Sequence record: OL615011
Direction: 5' to 3' (one strand)
DNA: 64,000 bases
Origin: Shigella phage vB_SboS_Gloob
Under the pieces are notes generated by a model, which saw only the letters and a list, made by a program, of their open reading frames with translations, searched no databases and had not been told where the DNA came from. Of this stretch, positions 787 through 45,063 are shown one piece after another. Position 1 is the first letter of the stretch, and each line of letters opens with the position of its first letter. Position numbers and translations under genes: made by a program.

Positions 787-1556
787 CGATCCGGCCAGAC
801 TCCGTTCTGTTCTTTATCCATGCGATGGTACAGACGAACACGCTCAAACATCTTTGTCAGGATGTCATCGCGGTTGAACTCTATGATGGTTGGCGTCAAC
901 GATGACTCGTTGGCAATCACATTGATGAGGCGGGTGATCTTGACACCGAACATCTGCTGGAACATAACAGAGTACAAGCACAGCTGGATACTGTAGTCCT
1001 CGATCATTCCCCGCGTCTTCATGGTGTTCGATGTCTTGAAGTCGATGATAGCAGGCTTACCCTCATAAACCCCGATAAGGTCCACTCGACCTGCGAGACC
1101 AAGCACCTCGCTATATAACGGGATCTCCTGAGCATAGATCTTTGTCATCTTGTTCAGATAGGGGAACAGCTGCTTGAACATGAACATGTATTCGCCAGCC
1201 GCTTCCAACACTTCTTTCATTGGGCGGTTCTTCAAATACAGTTCACATGCAAGGTGCAGCTTCTCCCCTCGGTCAGCGCAACGCATGGTCTCAAGGTCGG
1301 CGGCCTCTGCACCCAGCTTCTCCCTCCAAGCCTCAAGCCATTCATGATCACCAGTACGCCCCAGCATCGTCGTTACAGACGTCAGCTTGACACCAGTTGG
1401 TGACACATAATGACGACCGTTCTCCGTCGTCACACACTCCAGTTCCTTATGAGGAAGTTCGTACTGCTGGAATGTGTAATGACGATTTTCGAAGTCGTTC
1501 AGCTTGCGCAGGGCTTGGAGAGATGCCATCAGGAACCATCCATATATTTTCGCCAA
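783..1556 (-). CDS. PD-(D/E)xK-type nuclease-like protein (257 aa)
   Basis: ORF track; motif VDLIGVYEGKPAIIDFKTS resembles D...ExK nuclease core; no search performed. Confidence 0.4.
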   Translation of the reverse strand: MAKIYGWFLMASLQALRKLNDFENRHYTFQQYELPHKELECVTTENGRHYVSPTGVKLTSVTTMLGRTGDHEWLEAWREKLGAEAADLETMRCADRGEKLHLACELYLKNRPMKEVLEAAGEYMFMFKQLFPYLNKMTKIYAQEIPLYSEVLGLAGRVDLIGVYEGKPAIIDFKTSNTMKTRGMIEDYSIQLCLYSVMFQQMFGVKITRLINVIANESSLTPTIIEFNRDDILTKMFERVRLYHRMDKEQNGVWPDR

Positions 1557-1981
1557 TCAATGGCATTCTTCACTTCGTATCCCAGCTTGTTCAGGCGATC
1601 CAAACAAGTCTCGATGAACTTGACTTTTGCTTTCTGCTCTTGCAACAGAACAGACAGCTCTACATAGTCATCGTCGGCTTTGACCCATGTATCCAGGTCA
1701 GACTTCAGGGGGCGAACCTTCAGGGGGCGCTCTGCGTAGATGTTCGGGGGTAACTCCCCTGCATAGTAGCGGCGCAGATAGAGATCGATCTGGCGGAAGC
1801 GCCCGTTGAGGAATTCAAGATAACGCCCCTCACGCAGATAATGTCGTTGTACGGCCATCCAAGAGCGCCCGATTTTCAGTGAGATCTGGTCAAGGTTCAT
1901 GTCTTCTGGGTCCACTGTAATCAGCGGCTCCAGTTCGTTCATGATGTCCTCGGTTGCCATTGTCTGTAGTTGTTCTTTCAT
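1529..1981 (-). CDS. uvsY: UvsY-like recombination mediator (150 aa)
   Basis: ORF track; pattern YYAGE...VKADDDYVELSVLLQ...LGYEVKNAIDWR parallels remembered T4 UvsY (YYSGR...VLSADKDVLKVDTSLQ...RGFAIKHIQDMR). Confidence 0.55.
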   Translation of the reverse strand: MKEQLQTMATEDIMNELEPLITVDPEDMNLDQISLKIGRSWMAVQRHYLREGRYLEFLNGRFRQIDLYLRRYYAGELPPNIYAERPLKVRPLKSDLDTWVKADDDYVELSVLLQEQKAKVKFIETCLDRLNKLGYEVKNAIDWRKYMDGS

Positions 1982-2023
1982 AAAATATCCCAGCTTGTCA
2001 ATGTCATAGAATTATACCGTATT

Positions 2024-2524
2024 TCATGGATTAGAATCAATCACCTTCCCACCAGATAGTGGGACCAGCTGCTGGAACTTGAACGTCACTGTCGTCACCA
2101 GCTGAGGTACAGCCGCATCCACATCCACCAGTACGTTGTCCAGAGCAGTCGGACGGGCTTCCTCCAGCACGAGAGTGAGGCCAATCGGTCGGTTGAGGTT
2201 ATCCAGTAATTCAATGGTAATGTCCTTGGAGACAGCCAAATCCTTGCCGACGTTGCTGGTGATCCATTGGTGGATCTGTAACCACGATTTCCAGTCCTCG
2301 TCTATAACGAAAGTAAATACGACGGGATCATAGGTTAAACGTTCTGAAGGGATAGAAACCAGTACGTCGCCAGGAGACGGACCATCGATGCCTTCGGAGT
2401 ACACTCCTGGTATACTGAAGTCGTGGATGTTACGGGTTAGGAGTACAAGGTCTCCGATAGTCAGACGCCACTTATCGGACGCCGCGAAATTAGGGTTTTC
2501 GTTCTTGAATTGTACGTCGGACAT
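2024..2524 (-). CDS. hypothetical protein (166 aa)
   Basis: ORF track, ATG start, non-biased composition. Confidence 0.5.
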   Translation of the reverse strand: MSDVQFKNENPNFAASDKWRLTIGDLVLLTRNIHDFSIPGVYSEGIDGPSPGDVLVSIPSERLTYDPVVFTFVIDEDWKSWLQIHQWITSNVGKDLAVSKDITIELLDNLNRPIGLTLVLEEARPTALDNVLVDVDAAVPQLVTTVTFKFQQLVPLSGGKVIDSNP

Positions 2525-2562
2525 AATAGCACCTTTTGCTGTGGAGATATTTTGTGACCCTG

Positions 2563-3207
2563 ATGCGCGGGATCAGTAGATTGTTGTTGTTGGCATGCGC
2601 GATGCTCTTGCTTACGAGCTGTCGCATCTTTGTCACGCCAATAATTTCTGTTTCCGAACTCTGGAACCCAGAAGTACGCACCGTACCTGTGACGTTGTCG
2701 GCCAGTGTTCCTACTTGTAACAAGGGTATGCTGGACATCATCGTGCAAGAGTTCCAGACCTTCCAGAAGCTCGTGCCTTTGGGTTGCTTCGAGGAGAACA
2801 CGAGCACCCTCAAGCCATACTGGAAGACCACGATTCCCCTCCTGCGTCGTGGCGATGAAGGGAAGATTCCATACCTATCAGCAAGTATTTATTACTCTCA
2901 GAACAACAGCATCATCATCACTTTTAATCCATCATTCTACGCCAAGCTGAAGCAACACATGGTTGGGCGACTGAGTGAAACGTCGGATATAATCGTGACG
3001 TTCAAAATCATGAATGACTCAGACAAGCCAGTACGAATCGCAACTCAGGGTGTGTTCGTCAACAACGACGCAGTTGGGAATGAGATGAATATCTTTGAAG
3101 TTAACCCAGGGGGAACCATCTGGATTAGACTGAGTAATGTGGGTGTGAACTCCCTACTGTTGGATGGCATCGAACCAGTGGGAGTTCTTCCGGCGCGGGA
3201 GCGCTGA
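2563..3207 (+). CDS. putative lipoprotein (214 aa from ATG 2563; track ORF begins at TTG 2536)
   Basis: N-terminus MRGISRLLLLACAMLLLTSC has a signal peptide and lipobox-like LTSC; plus-strand ORF exactly fills the gap between two minus-strand genes. Confidence 0.45.
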   Translation: MRGISRLLLLACAMLLLTSCRIFVTPIISVSELWNPEVRTVPVTLSASVPTCNKGMLDIIVQEFQTFQKLVPLGCFEENTSTLKPYWKTTIPLLRRGDEGKIPYLSASIYYSQNNSIIITFNPSFYAKLKQHMVGRLSETSDIIVTFKIMNDSDKPVRIATQGVFVNNDAVGNEMNIFEVNPGGTIWIRLSNVGVNSLLLDGIEPVGVLPARER

Positions 3208-3209
3208 GA

Positions 3210-3938
3210 TTACTTCAGGGCGCTCTTCAGATTATCAGAACCTATGTTGTTGATAACGCCACCAGCGCACAGGTCTTTAGCCCACTCAGACAGTACATTG
3301 GCGAACGAGAAGTTCAGACACTTGCTGACCATGTCTTGGATGTGGGCTAACTCTGAGGCAATACCATTGGCGATATCCTGACCGATTTGCGCCACCTGAG
3401 CAATAGCATCGTTGATATATCCGGTAACTTCGGCGGCCAGCGCCTGGATCTTTGCTAGGCCAGCGCTTACGCCCTGCGCAACTAACTCAGCCAGTTCGGC
3501 CATCTTGGCAGTAACAGTGCTGAGAGCACCCTCCATAGCCCCGATCCACTGGCGCCCAAGAGTCTGTATGACGCCGAAGGCATTGTTGATCAGATCACAG
3601 TTGGTCGGCTCGCGCTCGATTGACTTCAGGCCAGATTTGTACGACACGGAAGTCCCGATGCGGGAATACGCTTCGTTCACAGTCTGATCACCATAGTTGT
3701 TCAGCGTGGTGAGGCTGGTGTCGGCAGAGGTGAACATCGTGTTCGTTTCATTGAGTTTGGCTGTGGTTAGACCGCCTGCCGTCAGAGCGCCCTGGATTTG
3801 CGTATTTCCGGTGTTTGCCAGTGCAGCTGTAGTCGCCTTGCCGCTGGTGATTAAACCCTGAGACGTGCTGCTGAGGGACGGGAGAGGATTGTTAAATGCG
3901 TTACCCTGCTCAAGGGCGTCATAGATCTGTGCGTTCAT
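3210..3938 (-). CDS. hypothetical late protein, Ala/Gly/Thr-rich (243 aa)
   Basis: ORF track; start taken at MNAQIYD because the upstream in-frame ATG lies inside the promoter palindrome. Confidence 0.5.
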   Translation of the reverse strand: MNAQIYDALEQGNAFNNPLPSLSSTSQGLITSGKATTAALANTGNTQIQGALTAGGLTTAKLNETNTMFTSADTSLTTLNNYGDQTVNEAYSRIGTSVSYKSGLKSIEREPTNCDLINNAFGVIQTLGRQWIGAMEGALSTVTAKMAELAELVAQGVSAGLAKIQALAAEVTGYINDAIAQVAQIGQDIANGIASELAHIQDMVSKCLNFSFANVLSEWAKDLCAGGVINNIGSDNLKSALK

Positions 3939-3961
3939 AGAAAATACCCCCATGGATGATG

Positions 3962-3972
3962 GGGGTATTTAG
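3962..3972 (-). promoter_or_regulatory. late promoter motif CTAAATACCCC inside a palindrome (AAATACCCCCAT / ATGGGGGTATTT)
   Basis: Exact motif 25-30 nt upstream of gene start 3938; inverted repeat spans about 3936-3972. Confidence 0.5.
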
Positions 3973-4185
3973 GGGATCATGGCAGTTTGTAAACGAAGTT
4001 GGACCAGAACTTGCGAGCGAACTTCTTGGCATAGACCTTCCAGTCGGCGTATTCGCCCTCCTTCAGGTCATTGTAGGTCTCGAACCCTACTGCTCCCAAG
4101 AAGTACGCCGTGAAGATATAGCAGAACAGATTGACGACAAACATGATGTATCTCCGCTGTGTGAACTCAAATTATTTATGGTATG

Positions 4186-4608
4186 TTATAAAAGGCGCTT
4201 GGTCTTCGGCTTGCCCATTAGAGTGATGTCCACAGGGAGGCCAGTTTTCTTGCAACGGTTGATCATATCCAGAGTGCCAGTAGACGAGCCGTCCCACATC
4301 GCAATCGGATACACTTCCAGCCTGGTCTGCCTGACGAGTTCCAATGCCTTGTCTAACATGTCCTGATTGCGTTTGTTACCCATCCCTTTCCCATACCTTT
4401 CATAATAGCTCGGAGGGATTGGCATAGGAGTGATATGAACATAATTGATTTCAGCCCAATCACGGCAAATCGTGTCGACACCCGTGGCCTCACCCTCGAT
4501 CAACGTATAGACTTCATGAGGATCGAGAAGTTCGTCCAGCTTGGCGAATACCTTATCCCGCTCGGTGATTGAGCGGGAACCTGTAACGAGTACGATATAC
4601 TTCTTCAT
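4186..4608 (-). CDS. SLOG/DprA-like Rossmann-fold protein (141 aa)
   Basis: Start MKKYIVLVTGSRS; glycine-rich loop after a beta-strand resembles DprA/LOG-like families; weak, by eye only. Confidence 0.35.
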   Translation of the reverse strand: MKKYIVLVTGSRSITERDKVFAKLDELLDPHEVYTLIEGEATGVDTICRDWAEINYVHITPMPIPPSYYERYGKGMGNKRNQDMLDKALELVRQTRLEVYPIAMWDGSSTGTLDMINRCKKTGLPVDITLMGKPKTKRLL

Positions 4609-15651: not shown

Positions 15652-17862
15652 TCACCGTCTCAGCCATTCTTCCATGGACATGCCAGAGCGTTCGTCATAC
15701 ACCTGAACTCCACCAAACCCTGGGATACTCTCTATAGAGTGAGGATCTGGTGTTGAAAGCACACCCCCGAAAGGTAACATCTGAGATTCTTCCATCGCAG
15801 ATAATCTTCCTCTCATGTCCACAGAGATACTTGAGTTTGTGAGATCACTAAACCATTCTTGTTTCACCGCCCATGCATAGAGCACGAGAGGCATCACACA
15901 GTCATCATGACAACCATCATCGGCTTCATACCTTGTCCCAGTCCATACGAATGTACTGAGTTCATCTATCGTGTCCTGGTCATCAACCACCAGCATCTCA
16001 CGTTCGATAAGCGCCTTGAGGTTAGCACAACCATTCGAACGCACTTTCTTGTTCGTGTTGATGCCAGGCTCAGGGCGGCGACCACCAATTCGTTTGCCAG
16101 TACCCTTCGCATCTGTGGTAGTGAAGATGATCTCTGGGTATTCAATTTCCTGGTATAGAATTGTGATTACCTGGCCGCCCACGTCGTTGTTGGTTTCAAC
16201 CAGCATCGGACACGTGCCATATTTCTCGCCCATGTCGGCGATAGTGTATGCATACATCATTGGAGGTATCGTGTTGTTCCGATACTTGGCCGCAATCTTG
16301 TGAGGATAGTCTGTGATGTCCAAGATGGTAAGGACAGAGTAATCCCCCTCCACGCCTTTGCCTGTATCGGCGATACCCATGTAGATGCGCTTCGGATCGT
16401 AATCGTGATAGATCTTGGTGAACTCGTTCGGCTCCTGATAGAGTTTCGAGGTCATCTTGTCTAAGCACTTGGCCGGAATCAATGAACCGACGGAACCACG
16501 GAACTTGATACCGAATTCCTGATCGAAACGTGCATCGCCCAGCTTCGCCCTCTGTTTGGATTCCCAGTTCGGATCCTTGGTGTATGTTGGAACACGATAC
16601 CAAGGCACCTCTGTGAGTTTGAAGTCGTTGTACTGAGGGTGTTCTGGGTTCGCCTTGGTGACGATGTCGTAGAACAACCCGCGCTGGCCTTTCGGCGTAC
16701 TGGTCAAGATACAACGTGAAGTCTCTGCAGATGCAATCGCAGGGAATGTTGACTCCCAGAATTCAAAGTCATTTTCGATGAACGCCACTTCGTCCACATA
16801 CAGGAGCGATACAGATCGACCACGGATAGAGTCAGAAGATGTCGCATAAGCATAGATCTTCGATCCGTTTTCGAACTCGATGAGCGTGGAGCCGAACTTC
16901 TCACAACCCTGCTGGAGGAAGAATGGCAAATCCTGGTATGCCTTGCGGATACGGTCTAGGATTTCAATCGCCTGCTTCTCTTTGTTCGCCAGTACCGCGA
17001 TCTCTTTGTCAGAGTGGAACATCGCATACCAGAGCAGGAACGCTGCTACGACTGTCGTGTTGTGGCTGAGGAAGCCGTTGGTGTAGTAGCGCTGATCACT
17101 AGATTTCACCTGTAGGTCATACATGTGATGCATCTCACCAGTCTGCCATACCTCAACGACTTCTTCTAGACCTTCTTCGGTCATCAGCCGTGAACCAGCA
17201 ACCAGATCTTTAGCAAACACTTCCTTCATGTTCTGATTGAAGAACATGTGATCATCGGCCACGTTGATACGACGACCACTGGAAGTGATGACAACGTACT
17301 CTTGGTACAGCTTGGTCTTGTGCGCGGCGATGACAGGCACCCAGCCTTTGTCACAGCGAACAAAATAACGCTTGCCGAAGCGGCTGTCTACGAACTTATC
17401 GTGTTTGCCAAAGGCATTCAGTGGCTCGGCGTGATTTGGTCCCTCGAAGCGGCTGTGAAGCTCCTCGATGGTGACTTTAAACTCTTCTTGGCTGAACGTA
17501 TCGTAAACCTCGACGATGCTGTCACCCTTCACACACTTGCCAGACTGACGCGCCTGGACTACGGCGTTGAAGCGGTGATCCTGGAAGTCATGGAACAGCT
17601 GCTTCTGATAATCATGCATATCGAAGAGGATGAAGCCCTTATCGATGGTCGTGATCTTGTAGTAGTTGGCGGCGAAGTAATGAGCGTCCATCGCGCACTC
17701 AACGAACTCCGATTCTTGATCGTCGGTCAACATCAACTCTACACGAGGAGCACGCACAGACGGCTTGCGCATGAACGTCTGGTCCATACGCAATCTGACA
17801 TCATCAATCTTGAATCCCGTCTTTATCGGGGCATATTCAATATCACGCTTCTGATACGCCAT
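15652..17862 (-). CDS. terminase large subunit, gp17-like, interrupted by a mini-intein
   Basis: Walker A QARQSGK|C...HN|TTVVAAF; ATG at 17862 (track start 17871 is GTG). Confidence 0.9.
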   Translation of the reverse strand: MAYQKRDIEYAPIKTGFKIDDVRLRMDQTFMRKPSVRAPRVELMLTDDQESEFVECAMDAHYFAANYYKITTIDKGFILFDMHDYQKQLFHDFQDHRFNAVVQARQSGKCVKGDSIVEVYDTFSQEEFKVTIEELHSRFEGPNHAEPLNAFGKHDKFVDSRFGKRYFVRCDKGWVPVIAAHKTKLYQEYVVITSSGRRINVADDHMFFNQNMKEVFAKDLVAGSRLMTEEGLEEVVEVWQTGEMHHMYDLQVKSSDQRYYTNGFLSHNTTVVAAFLLWYAMFHSDKEIAVLANKEKQAIEILDRIRKAYQDLPFFLQQGCEKFGSTLIEFENGSKIYAYATSSDSIRGRSVSLLYVDEVAFIENDFEFWESTFPAIASAETSRCILTSTPKGQRGLFYDIVTKANPEHPQYNDFKLTEVPWYRVPTYTKDPNWESKQRAKLGDARFDQEFGIKFRGSVGSLIPAKCLDKMTSKLYQEPNEFTKIYHDYDPKRIYMGIADTGKGVEGDYSVLTILDITDYPHKIAAKYRNNTIPPMMYAYTIADMGEKYGTCPMLVETNNDVGGQVITILYQEIEYPEIIFTTTDAKGTGKRIGGRRPEPGINTNKKVRSNGCANLKALIEREMLVVDDQDTIDELSTFVWTGTRYEADDGCHDDCVMPLVLYAWAVKQEWFSDLTNSSISVDMRGRLSAMEESQMLPFGGVLSTPDPHSIESIPGFGGVQVYDERSGMSMEEWLRR
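17059..17535 (-). mobile_element. mini-intein (159 aa, Hint domain only) inside terminase P-loop
   Basis: Begins CVKGDSIVEV, block B TSSGRRINVADDHMFF, ends MYDLQV...GFLSHN followed by T; excision restores QARQSGKTT. Confidence 0.8.
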
Positions 17863-18544
17863 CGTCTTCACCTTCTTCCTTCGGCTCTGCCTGAACTTCG
17901 ATTACATCTTCTTCGGGATCAGGTCCTTTGGACGCAGCTTTCGCTGCAGTACGTTCTTCAGCACGTTTACGGGCGTCTTCGATGGTCTTCAGTAGATCAC
18001 GGGAAGACCTGGCCTGTTTGCCGACGTTGACCGTGGTTGTACCATCAGGGGACGTGGTGACCTCGACAGTTGTTTCGTCCCCAGGAGGTGGCTCTTTGTC
18101 GCCTGTAACGGCCTTGATGGTCTTCTGGTTCTCCATCAGGTCTTTGTTCAGACCGCGCATGAGTTCGCCCAACTCTTTGAAGACTGTGAACGCGCGGGGT
18201 GCTTCAGTCGTCGTCGCGAGTTTGGCCGCCTGTCCCATCATGAACATCGTGGCTTCCTGCATGGCATAAGTCGTGTCACGGATGCGTTTGTAGTCGGTGG
18301 TGGCGTCCGTGTCTTCGAAGTCTGGAACCTTAGACTCCTTGGACTTCAGCTCTTCTGGGTCCAGAGAAGGAGGGAACACCACAGGCTCATACCCTGCAGG
18401 CTTTTCACCCAACCATTCGCCTGTATCCGGATCATAATCTTTTCCAGCCACAGGCGAGGTCTTCTCCATGACTTCTTGAGCGACCTCATCCCGCGCTTGG
18501 ATAGCACCGAGGGTGGACAATAGGCGTTCTGACATAGCACTCAT
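17843..18544 (-). CDS. putative terminase small subunit (gp16 position, about 233 aa)
   Basis: Immediately upstream of and overlapping terminase large gene; acidic C-terminus; by position only. Confidence 0.45.
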   Translation of the reverse strand: MSAMSERLLSTLGAIQARDEVAQEVMEKTSPVAGKDYDPDTGEWLGEKPAGYEPVVFPPSLDPEELKSKESKVPDFEDTDATTDYKRIRDTTYAMQEATMFMMGQAAKLATTTEAPRAFTVFKELGELMRGLNKDLMENQKTIKAVTGDKEPPPGDETTVEVTTSPDGTTTVNVGKQARSSRDLLKTIEDARKRAEERTAAKAASKGPDPEEDVIEVQAEPKEEGEDDGVSEA

Positions 18545-18546
18545 AA

Positions 18547-19242
18547 TCAATCTCCAGGATGATGTACACCGTCTTTGTCAACACGGAACCATTCTGGTAG
18601 TTCCGTCCACGGCGTTTTCAAATCATTAGACATTTCGATAATTATCTCTTTGATCCCGTTAGGATCCCCGCCACCACCATTGTCCACCCAATAGTCGTAC
18701 CCATAGATGAAGCCGCTCAGCTGGAACATGAAGGAGCAGTCGACGTGTGGTGAATCAGAAGCATCCCCTTCCCAGTTATCGGACATCTGGTGGTTAATCA
18801 GTTGGATCTTGATCTTCTGGTCTTGCTGTAGTGTATCGTTGTCCTTGATGCCACAGTCTAGAGAGGGGGTGAATACCGAATAAACCTGCTCTAGCACCTG
18901 TAACATCTCAACCAATTTCTTGGTTCGGATATTGTACTCAAAATCGATAATCAGGGGAATTCGCTGCTTCGCCCCGGCTGTTGGCGTCGATTGTCGATTG
19001 TGGTACGTCTTCGTCACCTGTTTGTTGATCTCAAACTGACCAAAAGAGAAGGTCGCAAATGGGAGCATGTTGGATGGCACGTTCCTGTTGAGGTCATTGC
19101 GTCTCCCGATGGCCATGTGTAATGGGACTTCCATAAGGCCACGCTCTGTGTTCACCTTCAGATCAGACATAATGGTGGCAAACAGATTGATGTATTTCAT
19201 CAATGAATCATGGTAGAAGTAATTTTCAAATGGTCTGGCCAT
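18547..19242 (-). CDS. tail completion / sheath stabiliser candidate (gp15 position, 231 aa)
   Basis: Gene order gp13-gp14-gp15-gp16-gp17 as in T4. Confidence 0.45.
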   Translation of the reverse strand: MARPFENYFYHDSLMKYINLFATIMSDLKVNTERGLMEVPLHMAIGRRNDLNRNVPSNMLPFATFSFGQFEINKQVTKTYHNRQSTPTAGAKQRIPLIIDFEYNIRTKKLVEMLQVLEQVYSVFTPSLDCGIKDNDTLQQDQKIKIQLINHQMSDNWEGDASDSPHVDCSFMFQLSGFIYGYDYWVDNGGGGDPNGIKEIIIEMSNDLKTPWTELPEWFRVDKDGVHHPGD

Positions 19243-43641: not shown

Positions 43642-43717
<76 letters not shown>

Positions 43718-44126
43718 TATTAAGGGGCGATAGTTTAAGGGATAGCTGTCCGGACAGCGAATCCTCATAGAGAACGGCTGGGCGGCCAAACCCAGCAGGT
43801 GAGGTGAAAAGCCTCAGACCCCGCCAAATTTGTGTTGAAGAGACGTTGGGTCAGAACCAACTCGCCCGAAAGGGGGATCGTATAGCGGTAATTATGCTTC
43901 GACACAACAGCATTATGGGGAGCACCGATGAGATGAGGGTTCGGGCGAGTTAAGCGACGGCCGATTAAGTCCTGTACTCTGTTCAAGGTGGTCTTAACCT
44001 CCCCACCAAATATTGTTGGACTGCCAGCAAGCTCCGGTCTACGGCAGGCGTGATGGGATCGCGGAATTCAAATACCGCCTTGGGAGCACCTAAATAAACC
44101 AGTTGTTCAATAAACAGTTGGTGAGT

Positions 44127-44327
44127 ATGATGAAAACGTTCGGTGATTTTATTGCTGAGTGGGATGGCCTCGCTACCGACAACAAAGAGATTGTCGAGTT
44201 TGTTGAAAAGCGAGGTGACAAGTGGGTTGTCCTTGACCACACCAAGACGAAGGTTCTTGGTACACATGACACCAAAGCTGACGCTGATGCCCAATTAAGG
44301 GCGATTGAAGCGAACAAGCACGGATAA
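44127..44327 (+). CDS. hypothetical protein (about 66 aa) abutting tRNA-Asn
   Basis: ORF track (track start is TTG at 44103; ATG at 44127). Confidence 0.4.
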   Translation: MMKTFGDFIAEWDGLATDNKEIVEFVEKRGDKWVVLDHTKTKVLGTHDTKADADAQLRAIEANKHG

Positions 44328-44328
44328 A

Positions 44329-44404
44329 GACGATGTAGTTCAGTCGGTAGAACGGTGGACTGTTAATCCATATGTCACAGGTTCAAGTCCTGTCATCGTC
44401 GCCA
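44329..44404 (+). tRNA. tRNA-Asn (anticodon GTT)
   Basis: GACGATG acceptor, D-arm GTTC-AGTCGGTA-GAAC, anticodon loop CTGTTAA, T-arm ACAGG-TTCAAGT-CCTGT, CCA encoded. Confidence 0.8.
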
Positions 44405-44661
44405 GACAATGGGTGTGAACGAAAGTGAATAGGCACGAAGTACGCGACCGACAAGCTCCAAGCCTCTGTCCAATAGCCGAACGGAATCTGAAGACGACGA
44501 TAGTAACGCCCACCAAATTCAGAGTGTAGAGGCTACAGTAGTGCGCACCTCACGGGTTGCTACACCGGACACTCTGATACAAATCTGCCGCTGCGTGGAT
44601 TAGCTGAGGAAGGATGGCCGATGTCCTCGAGCGTGGCCCAGCACGCAGCGGTAGACCAAAT

Positions 44662-44745
44662 GTGAGTGTGGCAGAGCGGTCGAATGCAGGAGACTGTAAA
44701 TCTCCCCGTAACAGCGCGGTGGTTCGAATCCATCCACTCACACCA
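44662..44745 (+). tRNA. tRNA-Tyr (anticodon GTA), long variable arm
   Basis: Acceptor GTGAGTG/CACTCAC, anticodon stem GGAGA/TCTCC with loop CTGTAAA, T-loop TTCGAAT, CCA encoded. Confidence 0.7.
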
Positions 44746-44886
44746 AACACAGTAAGCGTTGCAGCCACGCTGTGTATCTGGCCAGAAGGCACTGGTCGCC
44801 AGTTAACCAATCGGCGCTGAGAAGCGCGGGGAGTTGGGCTACGGCAGATCAAATGCTCAATCGGGTGTGAAGCCCGTCTAAATTTC

Positions 44887-44970
44887 GCGGGAGCCATAGG
44901 GGTTGGACAGTAGCCGACTGATCATCGGCGACGATCACTGGACAGGTTCGAATCCTGATCTCCCGCTCCA
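44887..44970 (+). tRNA. probable tRNA-Ile (anticodon GAT) with atypical T-stem and long variable region
   Basis: Acceptor GCGGGAG/CTCCCGC, anticodon stem GCCGA/TCGGC with loop CTGATCA, T-loop TTCGAAT; geometry imperfect by eye. Confidence 0.4.
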
Positions 44971-44974
44971 AATT

Positions 44975-45063
44975 GGAAGGTTGCCCGAGAGGTTTAAGAG
45001 ACTCGACTGCTAATCGAGTGGGGCTTTTAGCCCCCGAAGGTTCGAATCCTTCACCTTCCGCCA
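44975..45063 (+). tRNA. tRNA-Ser (anticodon GCT), long variable arm
   Basis: Acceptor GGAAGGT/ACCTTCC, anticodon stem CTCGA/TCGAG with loop CTGCTAA, variable arm TGGGGCTTTTAGCCCCC, T-arm GAAGG-TTCGAAT-CCTTC, CCA encoded. Confidence 0.75.

Follow-up and report, generated by a model that had tools for sequence, protein, structure and literature searches.

The large terminase subunit (TerL) has been described as the most intein-rich of phage proteins, and the Lys/Thr junction of its P-loop as a 'classic' point of intein insertion (PMC5050341). The element considered here is a 159-residue insert at this junction in the terL gene of Shigella phage vB_SboS_Gloob, contained in a stretch of 64,000 nucleotides (nt) of sequence record OL615011, hereafter the window. 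An earlier note on this DNA had proposed a mini-intein that splits the Walker A P-loop, and we consider it very probable that the feature is indeed a class-1 cis-splicing mini-intein in the TerL Walker A loop. Annotated counterparts are found in Salmonella phages Marshall and Maynard (Kuttervirus) and in Klebsiella phage Magnus (Taipeivirus), which, as the window phage, belong to the Ackermannviridae. The RefSeq record of Marshall (NC_022772) states an 'intein from Cys110 to Asn268' with mat_peptide features, the Maynard and Magnus records also annotate the orthologous intein (that of Magnus as a mat_peptide), and the orthologous TerL intein was stated in genome announcements published in 2013 (PMC3853055) and 2019 (PMC6763660). 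The three elements are orthologous to that of the window, sharing with it the gene, the GK/T site (the slash marks the point of insertion), the length of 159 amino acids (aa) or 477 nt and the limits Cys110-Asn268, with 73-75% aa identity; unlike these copies, the window copy corresponds to the Agtrevirus/Limestonevirus allele. The element is already annotated and published in sister phages, and the finding is correct, not new; the current understanding of inteins is left unchanged by it. It was also observed that the RefSeq record of Shigella phage Ag3, the nearest to the window, is devoid of intein annotation, that 'pretoxin HINT domain protein' is the product name in the records of the Dickeya phages phiDP10.3, phiDP23.1, phiD3 and RC-2014, and that many others have 'hypothetical protein'. 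The gene is mislabelled, or its intein unmarked, in Ag3 and many sister records, a bare 'terminase large subunit' being another of the names in use, and the intein inflates divergence in terL-based phylogenies.

Other described inteins resemble the window element in site or in structure. The mycobacteriophage TerL1-a inteins, likened to it by their described site, also separate the invariant Lys of Walker A from the nucleophilic Thr, and several mycobacteriophage TerL inteins splice efficiently; the TerL1-a host is a Terminase_1 protein, whereas the window host is a T4-type Terminase_6, and the Terminase_6 inteins of the same study were located at the C-motif (site f) (Kelley et al. 2016, PMC5050341). 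In sequence and structure, the window intein falls in the same family as VidaL (PDB 6VGV), AceL-TerL, GOS-TerL and Cat (PDB 6DSL). These inteins are naturally and atypically split, whereas that of the window is contiguous, lying in a single uninterrupted open reading frame (ORF), and is predicted to splice in cis; the identity is of ~20%. Block B [AS]xxH, block F MYD/YD and block G YYTNG[IF][LV]SHN are common to the window intein and the VidaL/TerL split inteins, and VidaL is its best PDB match by both fold and profile. Since AceL-TerL, GOS-TerL and Cat use Cys+1 (PMC11766414, table), and residue +1 of the window intein is Thr, the former presumably occupy another TerL site.

The insert and its empty counterparts

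The terL gene of the window is organized as follows:

15652-17862, minus strand: TerL precursor gene (T4 gp17 type), identified by the ORF list, Pfam, PHROG_2 and the match to Ag3 terL
17536-17862, minus strand: N-extein, aa 1-109, ending ...QARQSGK (first half of Walker A), which aligns with ...SRQLGK of T4 gp17
17059-17535, minus strand: mini-intein, 159 aa, 18.5 kDa, identified by its translation, the exact gap in phage phiEa2809, the fold and the PDB profile matches
15652-17058, minus strand: C-extein, 468 aa plus stop, starting TTVVAAFLLWY, with the remainder of the ATPase domain together with the RNaseH-like nuclease domain

The host protein is a terminase of the T4 gp17 type, with an N-terminal ATPase carrying Walker A and a C-terminal RNaseH-like nuclease. 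Its sequence matched Pfam Terminase_6N (4e-17) and Terminase_6C (3e-6) and the PHROG_2 family 'terminase large subunit' (2e-55). The gene shares 98.3% nt identity with the 2211-nt terL coding sequence of Ag3 (Ackermannviridae, Agtrevirus), and its DNA matches 330 phage records.

Translation of both strands placed the gene on the minus strand and confirmed 17059-17535 as the exact limits of the insert; the plus-strand reading of this segment was rejected, as it contains many stop codons. The minus-strand translation, CVKGDSIVEV...TSSGRRINVADDHMFF...GFLSHN, extends for 159 aa in frame without any stop, and is preceded by ...FNAVVQARQSGK and followed by TTVVAAFLLWY.... Thus, the insert is contiguous and in frame, as the earlier note had described it, with Cys as its first residue, His-Asn as its last and Thr immediately after, and it corresponds to Cys110-Asn268 of the 736-aa precursor numbered from its ATG codon. 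Without these 159 aa, TerL would have 577 aa from the ATG or 580 aa from an upstream GTG.

The excision of the insert recreates a T4-like Walker A motif, RQSGKT. The spliced TerL aligned with T4 gp17 (PDB 3EZK/3CPE) over residues 32-520 with an E-value of 2e-71 and without gaps across the junction, where the query ARQSGKTTVVAAF faces SRQLGKTTVVAIF of T4. The comparison with intein-free homologues, suggested in the earlier note, led to the same result, since the TerL of Erwinia phage phiEa2809 (Ackermannviridae, Nezavisimistyvirus) reads QARQSGK/TTVVAAF and, in a three-way alignment, presents a gap of exactly 159 columns; at the DNA level, this empty site and the joined flanks of the window are identical at 58 of 72 nt. 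The restoration of a GKT P-loop is, in this way, supported by both proteins. An 82-aa peptide covering the spliced junction was also searched against 50,697 phage records. In the enterobacterial Ackermannviridae, it was recovered as two pieces spanning 723 nt (246 + 477) in all of the 60 best matches, whereas phiEa2809 (90% identical) and a group of Vibrio phages (72%) presented it as one uninterrupted piece of 246 nt. The 477-nt element itself was found in 281 phage records at a coverage of at least 80%. The insertion is, therefore, in frame at a conserved site and absent from close homologues, and its removal restores the host sequence. Digested with chymotrypsin, the ligated TerL would yield a junction-spanning peptide such as NAVVQARQSGKTTVVAAF, whereas the junction Lys is a trypsin cut point.

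It could be argued that excision occurs in the RNA, with the segment acting as an intron of group I or II or being skipped by translational bypass, considering that T4-like phages have self-splicing introns in some essential genes (PMC7409376), or else that the segment represents an assembly artefact. However, the reading frame runs through the segment without interruption and encodes a product that folds as a HINT domain, ratios of nonsynonymous to synonymous substitution rates (dN/dS) of 0.04-0.19 indicate conservation of the protein, and no Rfam family matched the region at E<=1, for which reason an intron or other RNA element was rejected. An artefact, in its turn, is opposed by the identical architecture of about 280 independently sequenced phage genomes. 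We give next to no credence to these explanations.

Splicing residues, fold and the predicted reaction

The sequence blocks of the intein, all on the minus strand, were assigned as follows:

17506-17535, minus strand: block A, CVKGDSIVEV, with the Cys1 codon TGT at 17533-17535 as the N-terminal nucleophile
17395-17439, minus strand: loop of intein residues 33-47, after helix alpha1, of low confidence in the model and equivalent to the S2 split site of relatives
17239-17277, minus strand: block B, GRRINVADDHMFF, with Ala93 and His96, invariant in alignments of 32 and 34 sequences
17107-17130, minus strand: block F, HHMYDLQV, with Met138 and Asp140, both in invariant columns
17056-17085, minus strand: block G, YTNGFLSHN plus residue +1, with His158 and Asn159, located by the DNA junction and invariant columns

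Of the residues that characterize class-1 inteins, the following are in place: Cys1 in block A, the Asp of block F together with the His-Asn of block G, and a nucleophilic Thr+1 (ACG, 17056-17058), which becomes the Thr of Walker A in mature TerL. To search for relatives, 1.84 billion cluster representatives (50%-identity clusters) were screened, of which 738 matched the intein at E<=1e-3 and 347 at E<=1e-10. In the family alignments of 32-34 sequences, the columns of A93, H96, M138, D140, L156, H158 and N159 show no variation, and the conservation of S157 reaches at least 90%; G64, T74 and G122 are likewise invariant, probably for structural reasons. Cys1 is the first residue of every contiguous family member aligned, and, among the best 150 representatives, those with a readable junction present HN followed by T or S, with the exceptions of one Cys+1 and one ...SHK (P0061). 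Five full-length Ackermannviridae copies were further compared, from the window, Marshall, LIMEstone1, 0507-KN2-1 and AV101, and all of them have 159 aa, Cys1 and SHN/TT. This is the opposite of what the earlier note had named as evidence against an intein, namely homologous terminases that carry the same segment as an ordinary domain devoid of splicing residues.

The AlphaFold2 model of the insert, built with the family alignment, was predicted with high confidence (mean predicted local distance difference test score, pLDDT, of 92.8; predicted template-modelling score of 0.86) and consists of one domain, all-beta except for a short helix at residues 23-29. The sole poorly defined part is the loop at residues ~33-47, where pLDDT is low across residues 31-50 and falls below 50 at residues 36-41; it coincides with the S2 split site of AceL-TerL and GOS-TerL (PMC13014065). 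Since the model comprises a single HINT domain without any extra domain, the lack of space for a homing endonuclease, claimed in the earlier note, was sustained; this 15-residue loop is the only non-core segment, and no endonuclease family appeared in the Pfam results for the intein or TerL. Foldseek searches against the PDB confirmed the HINT fold, returning 70 matches at E<=0.001, of which the best 42 were all inteins, with TM-scores of up to 0.83. VidaL led these matches (1.1e-14), which also included NpuDnaB, CDC21, TFIIB, RadA, GyrA and RecA, and the BIL and Hedgehog domains ranked below all 42 inteins, BIL2 being 43rd or lower.

Sequence searches were in line with the fold. The family profile had ten matches in the PDB, all of them inteins, including VidaL (6.5e-15), CatC (7e-9) and gp41-1 (7.1e-11; Foldseek, 1.3e-10). 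The latter (PDB 6QAZ, cyanophage-like) is, as the window intein, a small phage-derived HINT domain, but it differs in its gp41 helicase host, in being split at the canonical site and in its shorter length (128 aa when fused). Single-sequence searches with the isolated insert gave weak matches, every meaningful one of which was an intein (phmmer against the PDB; Pfam Intein_splicing, 2e-8), and a protein homologue search with the intein alone recovered two matches, the annotated Marshall/Maynard intein (73% identity to that of Maynard) and one fragment. The check by hidden Markov models (HMMs) of Hint domains, proposed in the earlier note, was positive for the PDB profile matches, whereas the curated HMMs remained just under their cut-offs. 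Nevertheless, PF14890 matches 27 of 34 family members at E<=0.01, and curated thresholds help to detect inteins but do not define them; as those matches are sub-threshold, membership rests on the fold, the motifs and the PDB profile matches.

These same near misses could suggest a dead intein, that is, a BIL-like or pretoxin-HINT domain retained as an ordinary domain of the terminase, in agreement with the product name given in some Dickeya phage GenBank records and with a weak match to the Pfam PT-HINT family (PF07591; E of 0.003-0.0004, 18-21 bits, below the cut-off of 27.7). Several findings are against it. A P-loop is not compatible with a domain of 159 aa permanently lodged between its Lys and its Thr; the terminase that hosts the insert is essential and conserved; none of the splicing residues is missing, and they correspond to family-invariant columns and are followed by a conserved Thr+1; the boundaries match the gap of the intein-free homologue to the residue; dN/dS is well below 1; and the structural neighbours are splicing-competent inteins, with BIL and Hedgehog domains scoring far lower. 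A dead domain is, consequently, regarded as very improbable.

For the proposed active mini-intein, the chemistry, the splicing itself and the inactivity of the precursor are what we infer from homology. A precursor of 84.6 kDa would be converted into a TerL of 66.1 kDa, with the motif RQSGKTT, and an intein of 18.5 kDa. First, an N-S acyl shift at Cys1, aided by His96 of block B, would generate a thioester with Lys109. Second, the hydroxyl of Thr+1 would attack this thioester. Third, Asn159 would cyclise, aided by His158 and by Asp140 of block F. Finally, an O-N acyl shift would establish the native Lys-Thr bond, forming the GKT of Walker A. Because the HINT domain interrupts the ATP-binding loop, the precursor should neither bind nor hydrolyse ATP, and, as the P-loop Lys and Thr are parted by a folded domain, both the ATPase activity and DNA packaging should need splicing. 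Rao and Mitchell reportedly found in 2001 that the Gly, Lys and Thr of the T4 gp17 Walker A tolerate almost no substitution. The packaging motor of the Ackermannviridae, which are widely used as biocontrol phages, would thus be made as an inactive precursor needing splicing, and this requirement would constitute a single-point vulnerability and, possibly, a timing step.

Some points weigh against this explanation. First, PF14890 (Intein_splicing) scored 34.6 bits for the isolated intein and 28.1 bits for the whole protein, with a cut-off of 35.8, and TIGR01445 (16.9 versus 24.5) and TIGR01443 (13.2 versus 15.6) were also near misses. Second, block B reads ADDH, with Ala93 in place of the textbook Thr of TxxH, so that the block-B-like motif claimed in the earlier note stood for the invariant His96, but not for the Thr position. 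Third, the literature found on Ackermannviridae TerL inteins consists of annotation-level statements only, and that the unspliced precursor is inactive is itself something we infer. Regarding the second point, the Ala variant is family-wide and common to VidaL, which aligns with A-F-N-H at this position (phmmer against the PDB and family profile) and is described as an ultra-fast splicing intein (PMC13014065); since AxxH is invariant in the family and present in VidaL, it is probably compatible with activity. What was directly demonstrated comprises the anatomy, the fold, the conservation of motifs, the intein-free allele and the purifying selection considered below.

Selection, mosaicism and a possible regulatory role

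In the comparison of the five copies, the G+C content of the intein was not different from that of the exteins. The dN/dS of the intein was 0.04 versus LIMEstone1, 0.19 versus AV101 and 0.10-0.12 for other pairs, whereas the exteins presented 0.02-0.04; these ratios are usable for the window, LIMEstone1 and AV101, and for 0507-KN2-1 versus AV101 and versus Marshall (exteins only), since dS is saturated between genera. The intein is under purifying selection, with a constraint weaker than that on the enzyme. The constraint is deduced from the low dN/dS, and this pattern is expected for an element obliged to keep splicing. Deprived of an endonuclease, the intein would now be inherited with the gene, and it would persist because any mutation blocking splicing would destroy an essential packaging enzyme. 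In agreement with the allele to which it belongs, the window intein is 96-99% identical to the copies of Dickeya phage LIMEstone1 (96%) and Shigella phage ChubbyThor.

A different picture emerged from Escherichia phage AV101, whose DNA is 92-100% identical to that of the window around terL. Along intein codons 1-130 (17146-17535), the identity between the two phages falls to ~70%, with dS of 1.2 and dN of 0.20, whereas codons 131-159 (17059-17145) are 100% identical, with dS of 0, which defines a sharp breakpoint at ~codon 130. This pattern of identity points to a recombination breakpoint inside or around the intein. A swap specific to the intein was considered as the cause of the divergent patch, but it is not clean: the synonymous sites of the N-extein diverge too (dS of 0.77 between the window and AV101), and the whole gene is mosaic.

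Regulatory implications have been argued for TerL intein positions, and pentamers have been considered unlikely to assemble while the intein remains in place (PMC5050341). Under conditional protein splicing, the window intein would time or gate the terminase late in infection, in response to the redox state of Cys1, temperature, assembly state or TerS/procapsid. This possibility is compatible with the mini-intein explanation, to which it adds a function, and two aspects of the locus favour it: the P-loop position, which would guarantee an inactive precursor, and the fact that at least four genera of the Ackermannviridae have kept this endonuclease-free intein. However, there is no second conserved Cys for a redox trap, as Cys61 of the window intein is Ser in Marshall, 0507-KN2-1 and AV101; the intein-free phiEa2809 and Vibrio phages package their DNA regardless; and the persistence of the intein is explained well enough by the lethality of its imprecise loss. 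Conditional splicing is, for these reasons, held as decidedly unlikely.

Apparently split relatives and the neighbourhood of terL

The relatives of the window intein were surveyed in the best 150 of the 738 representatives. It was observed that 103 of these 150 start with the C-terminal ~113 intein residues (M...RKF[IV][DE]S), followed by the C-extein, though some may be truncated calls at contig ends. The KF[VI][DE]S start of the C-intein of these split relatives aligns with residues 47-51 of the window intein. Only nine relatives aligned from intein residue 1, and 40 were internal partial matches, in 26 of which boundary mapping revealed a contiguous Cys1 intein. Because 103 of the 150 begin with the C-intein, these sequences suggest a family that is mostly naturally split after helix alpha1, at the S2 site.

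A cultured phage appears to exemplify this organization. In Delftia phage PhiW-14 (GQ357915), an unannotated 155-aa ORF (locus positions 2009-2476) ends in ...ARQMGK/CVQGDTEIKL..., a 43-aa N-intein closed by the double stop TGA TAA. Downstream of it come a hairpin rich in G+C, with a T-run, and a GGAG ribosome-binding site, after which the annotated gp17 (2525-4282) starts within the intein, as MDKPSRKFVGS...VASHN/TTTVAAFLLW. From its sequence, the PhiW-14 terL looks like a gene naturally split at GK/T by an atypical (S2) TerL intein.

Related inteins were also found at other positions. The same family occurs at the GK/T of other P-loop proteins, as in P0054 (...GTGVGK/C) and P0101 (...GEPGTGK/C). 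In Campylobacter phage CPt10 (NC_027996; locus positions 78-2273), an intein with 29% identity is located three residues upstream, MQPRQ/CIEAN...VLSHN/SSKSTT, with Ser+1, which is suggestive of a point of insertion that arose independently, or was displaced, inside a single motif. In Vibrio phage vB_VmeM-32 (KU160494; locus positions 1102-3216), the start annotated for TerL falls within a homologous P-loop intein, MNDKFLEIN...NNIASHN/TTVTAILL, the N-half of which was not found upstream in the record; this TerL harbors another intein, which is contiguous and lies at the Walker B region, YVDE/CVSGDT...GIESHN/CAFIENF. Regarding endonucleases, a free-standing homing endonuclease gene, F-LimIX, lies between the small terminase gene (terS) and terL in Dickeya phage LIMEstone1 (NC_019925; locus positions 809-1693), and none was present between these genes in the window phage, Ag3, Marshall, AV101 or 0507-KN2-1.

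The mosaic of the window and AV101, together with the 103 of 150 split-looking relatives, is suggestive of a broader interpretation, in which the window intein would represent one of the states taken by a very extensive family of phage inteins, which would be specific to the P-loop GK/T or GK/S and switch between fused and S2-split forms. The disordered loop at residues 33-47 might then be taken as the scar or the precursor of a split; the element would possibly still move between co-infecting phages by recombination, with endonucleases of the F-LimIX type helping in trans; and the intein might act as a post-translational gate on the terminase. We regard this interpretation as unlikely. Independently of it, a compact Cys1/Thr+1 relative of the VidaL/TerL split inteins, predicted to splice in cis and derived from a mesophilic enterobacterial phage could serve protein engineers as a scaffold.

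As for the gene context, the longest ORF of terL extends from 15652 to 17871 on the minus strand, reaching a GTG at 17871 (protein start MKTM...). The ATG at 17862 (MAYQKRD...) lies three codons after this GTG, is preceded by an AGGTGA-like Shine-Dalgarno sequence and is equivalent to the annotated terL start in Ag3, Marshall and AV101. The true start is probably ATG 17862 rather than GTG 17871, and the precursor counted from it has 736 aa and a computed mass of 84.6 kDa. Directly upstream of terL, and overlapping its start by ~20 nt, is the following gene:

17843-18550, minus strand: small terminase gene terS (gp16-like), identified by the ORF list and by synteny with Ag3, Marshall and phiEa2809

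The order of the late genes, gp14, gp15, terS (gp16), terL (gp17) and the sheath gene gp18, is the same as in annotated relatives. A family search of the window recovered no further intein of the same family. Elsewhere in the window, four tRNA genes are clustered at 43642-45063 on the plus strand: Met-CAT, Asn-GTT, Tyr-GTA and Ser-GCT.

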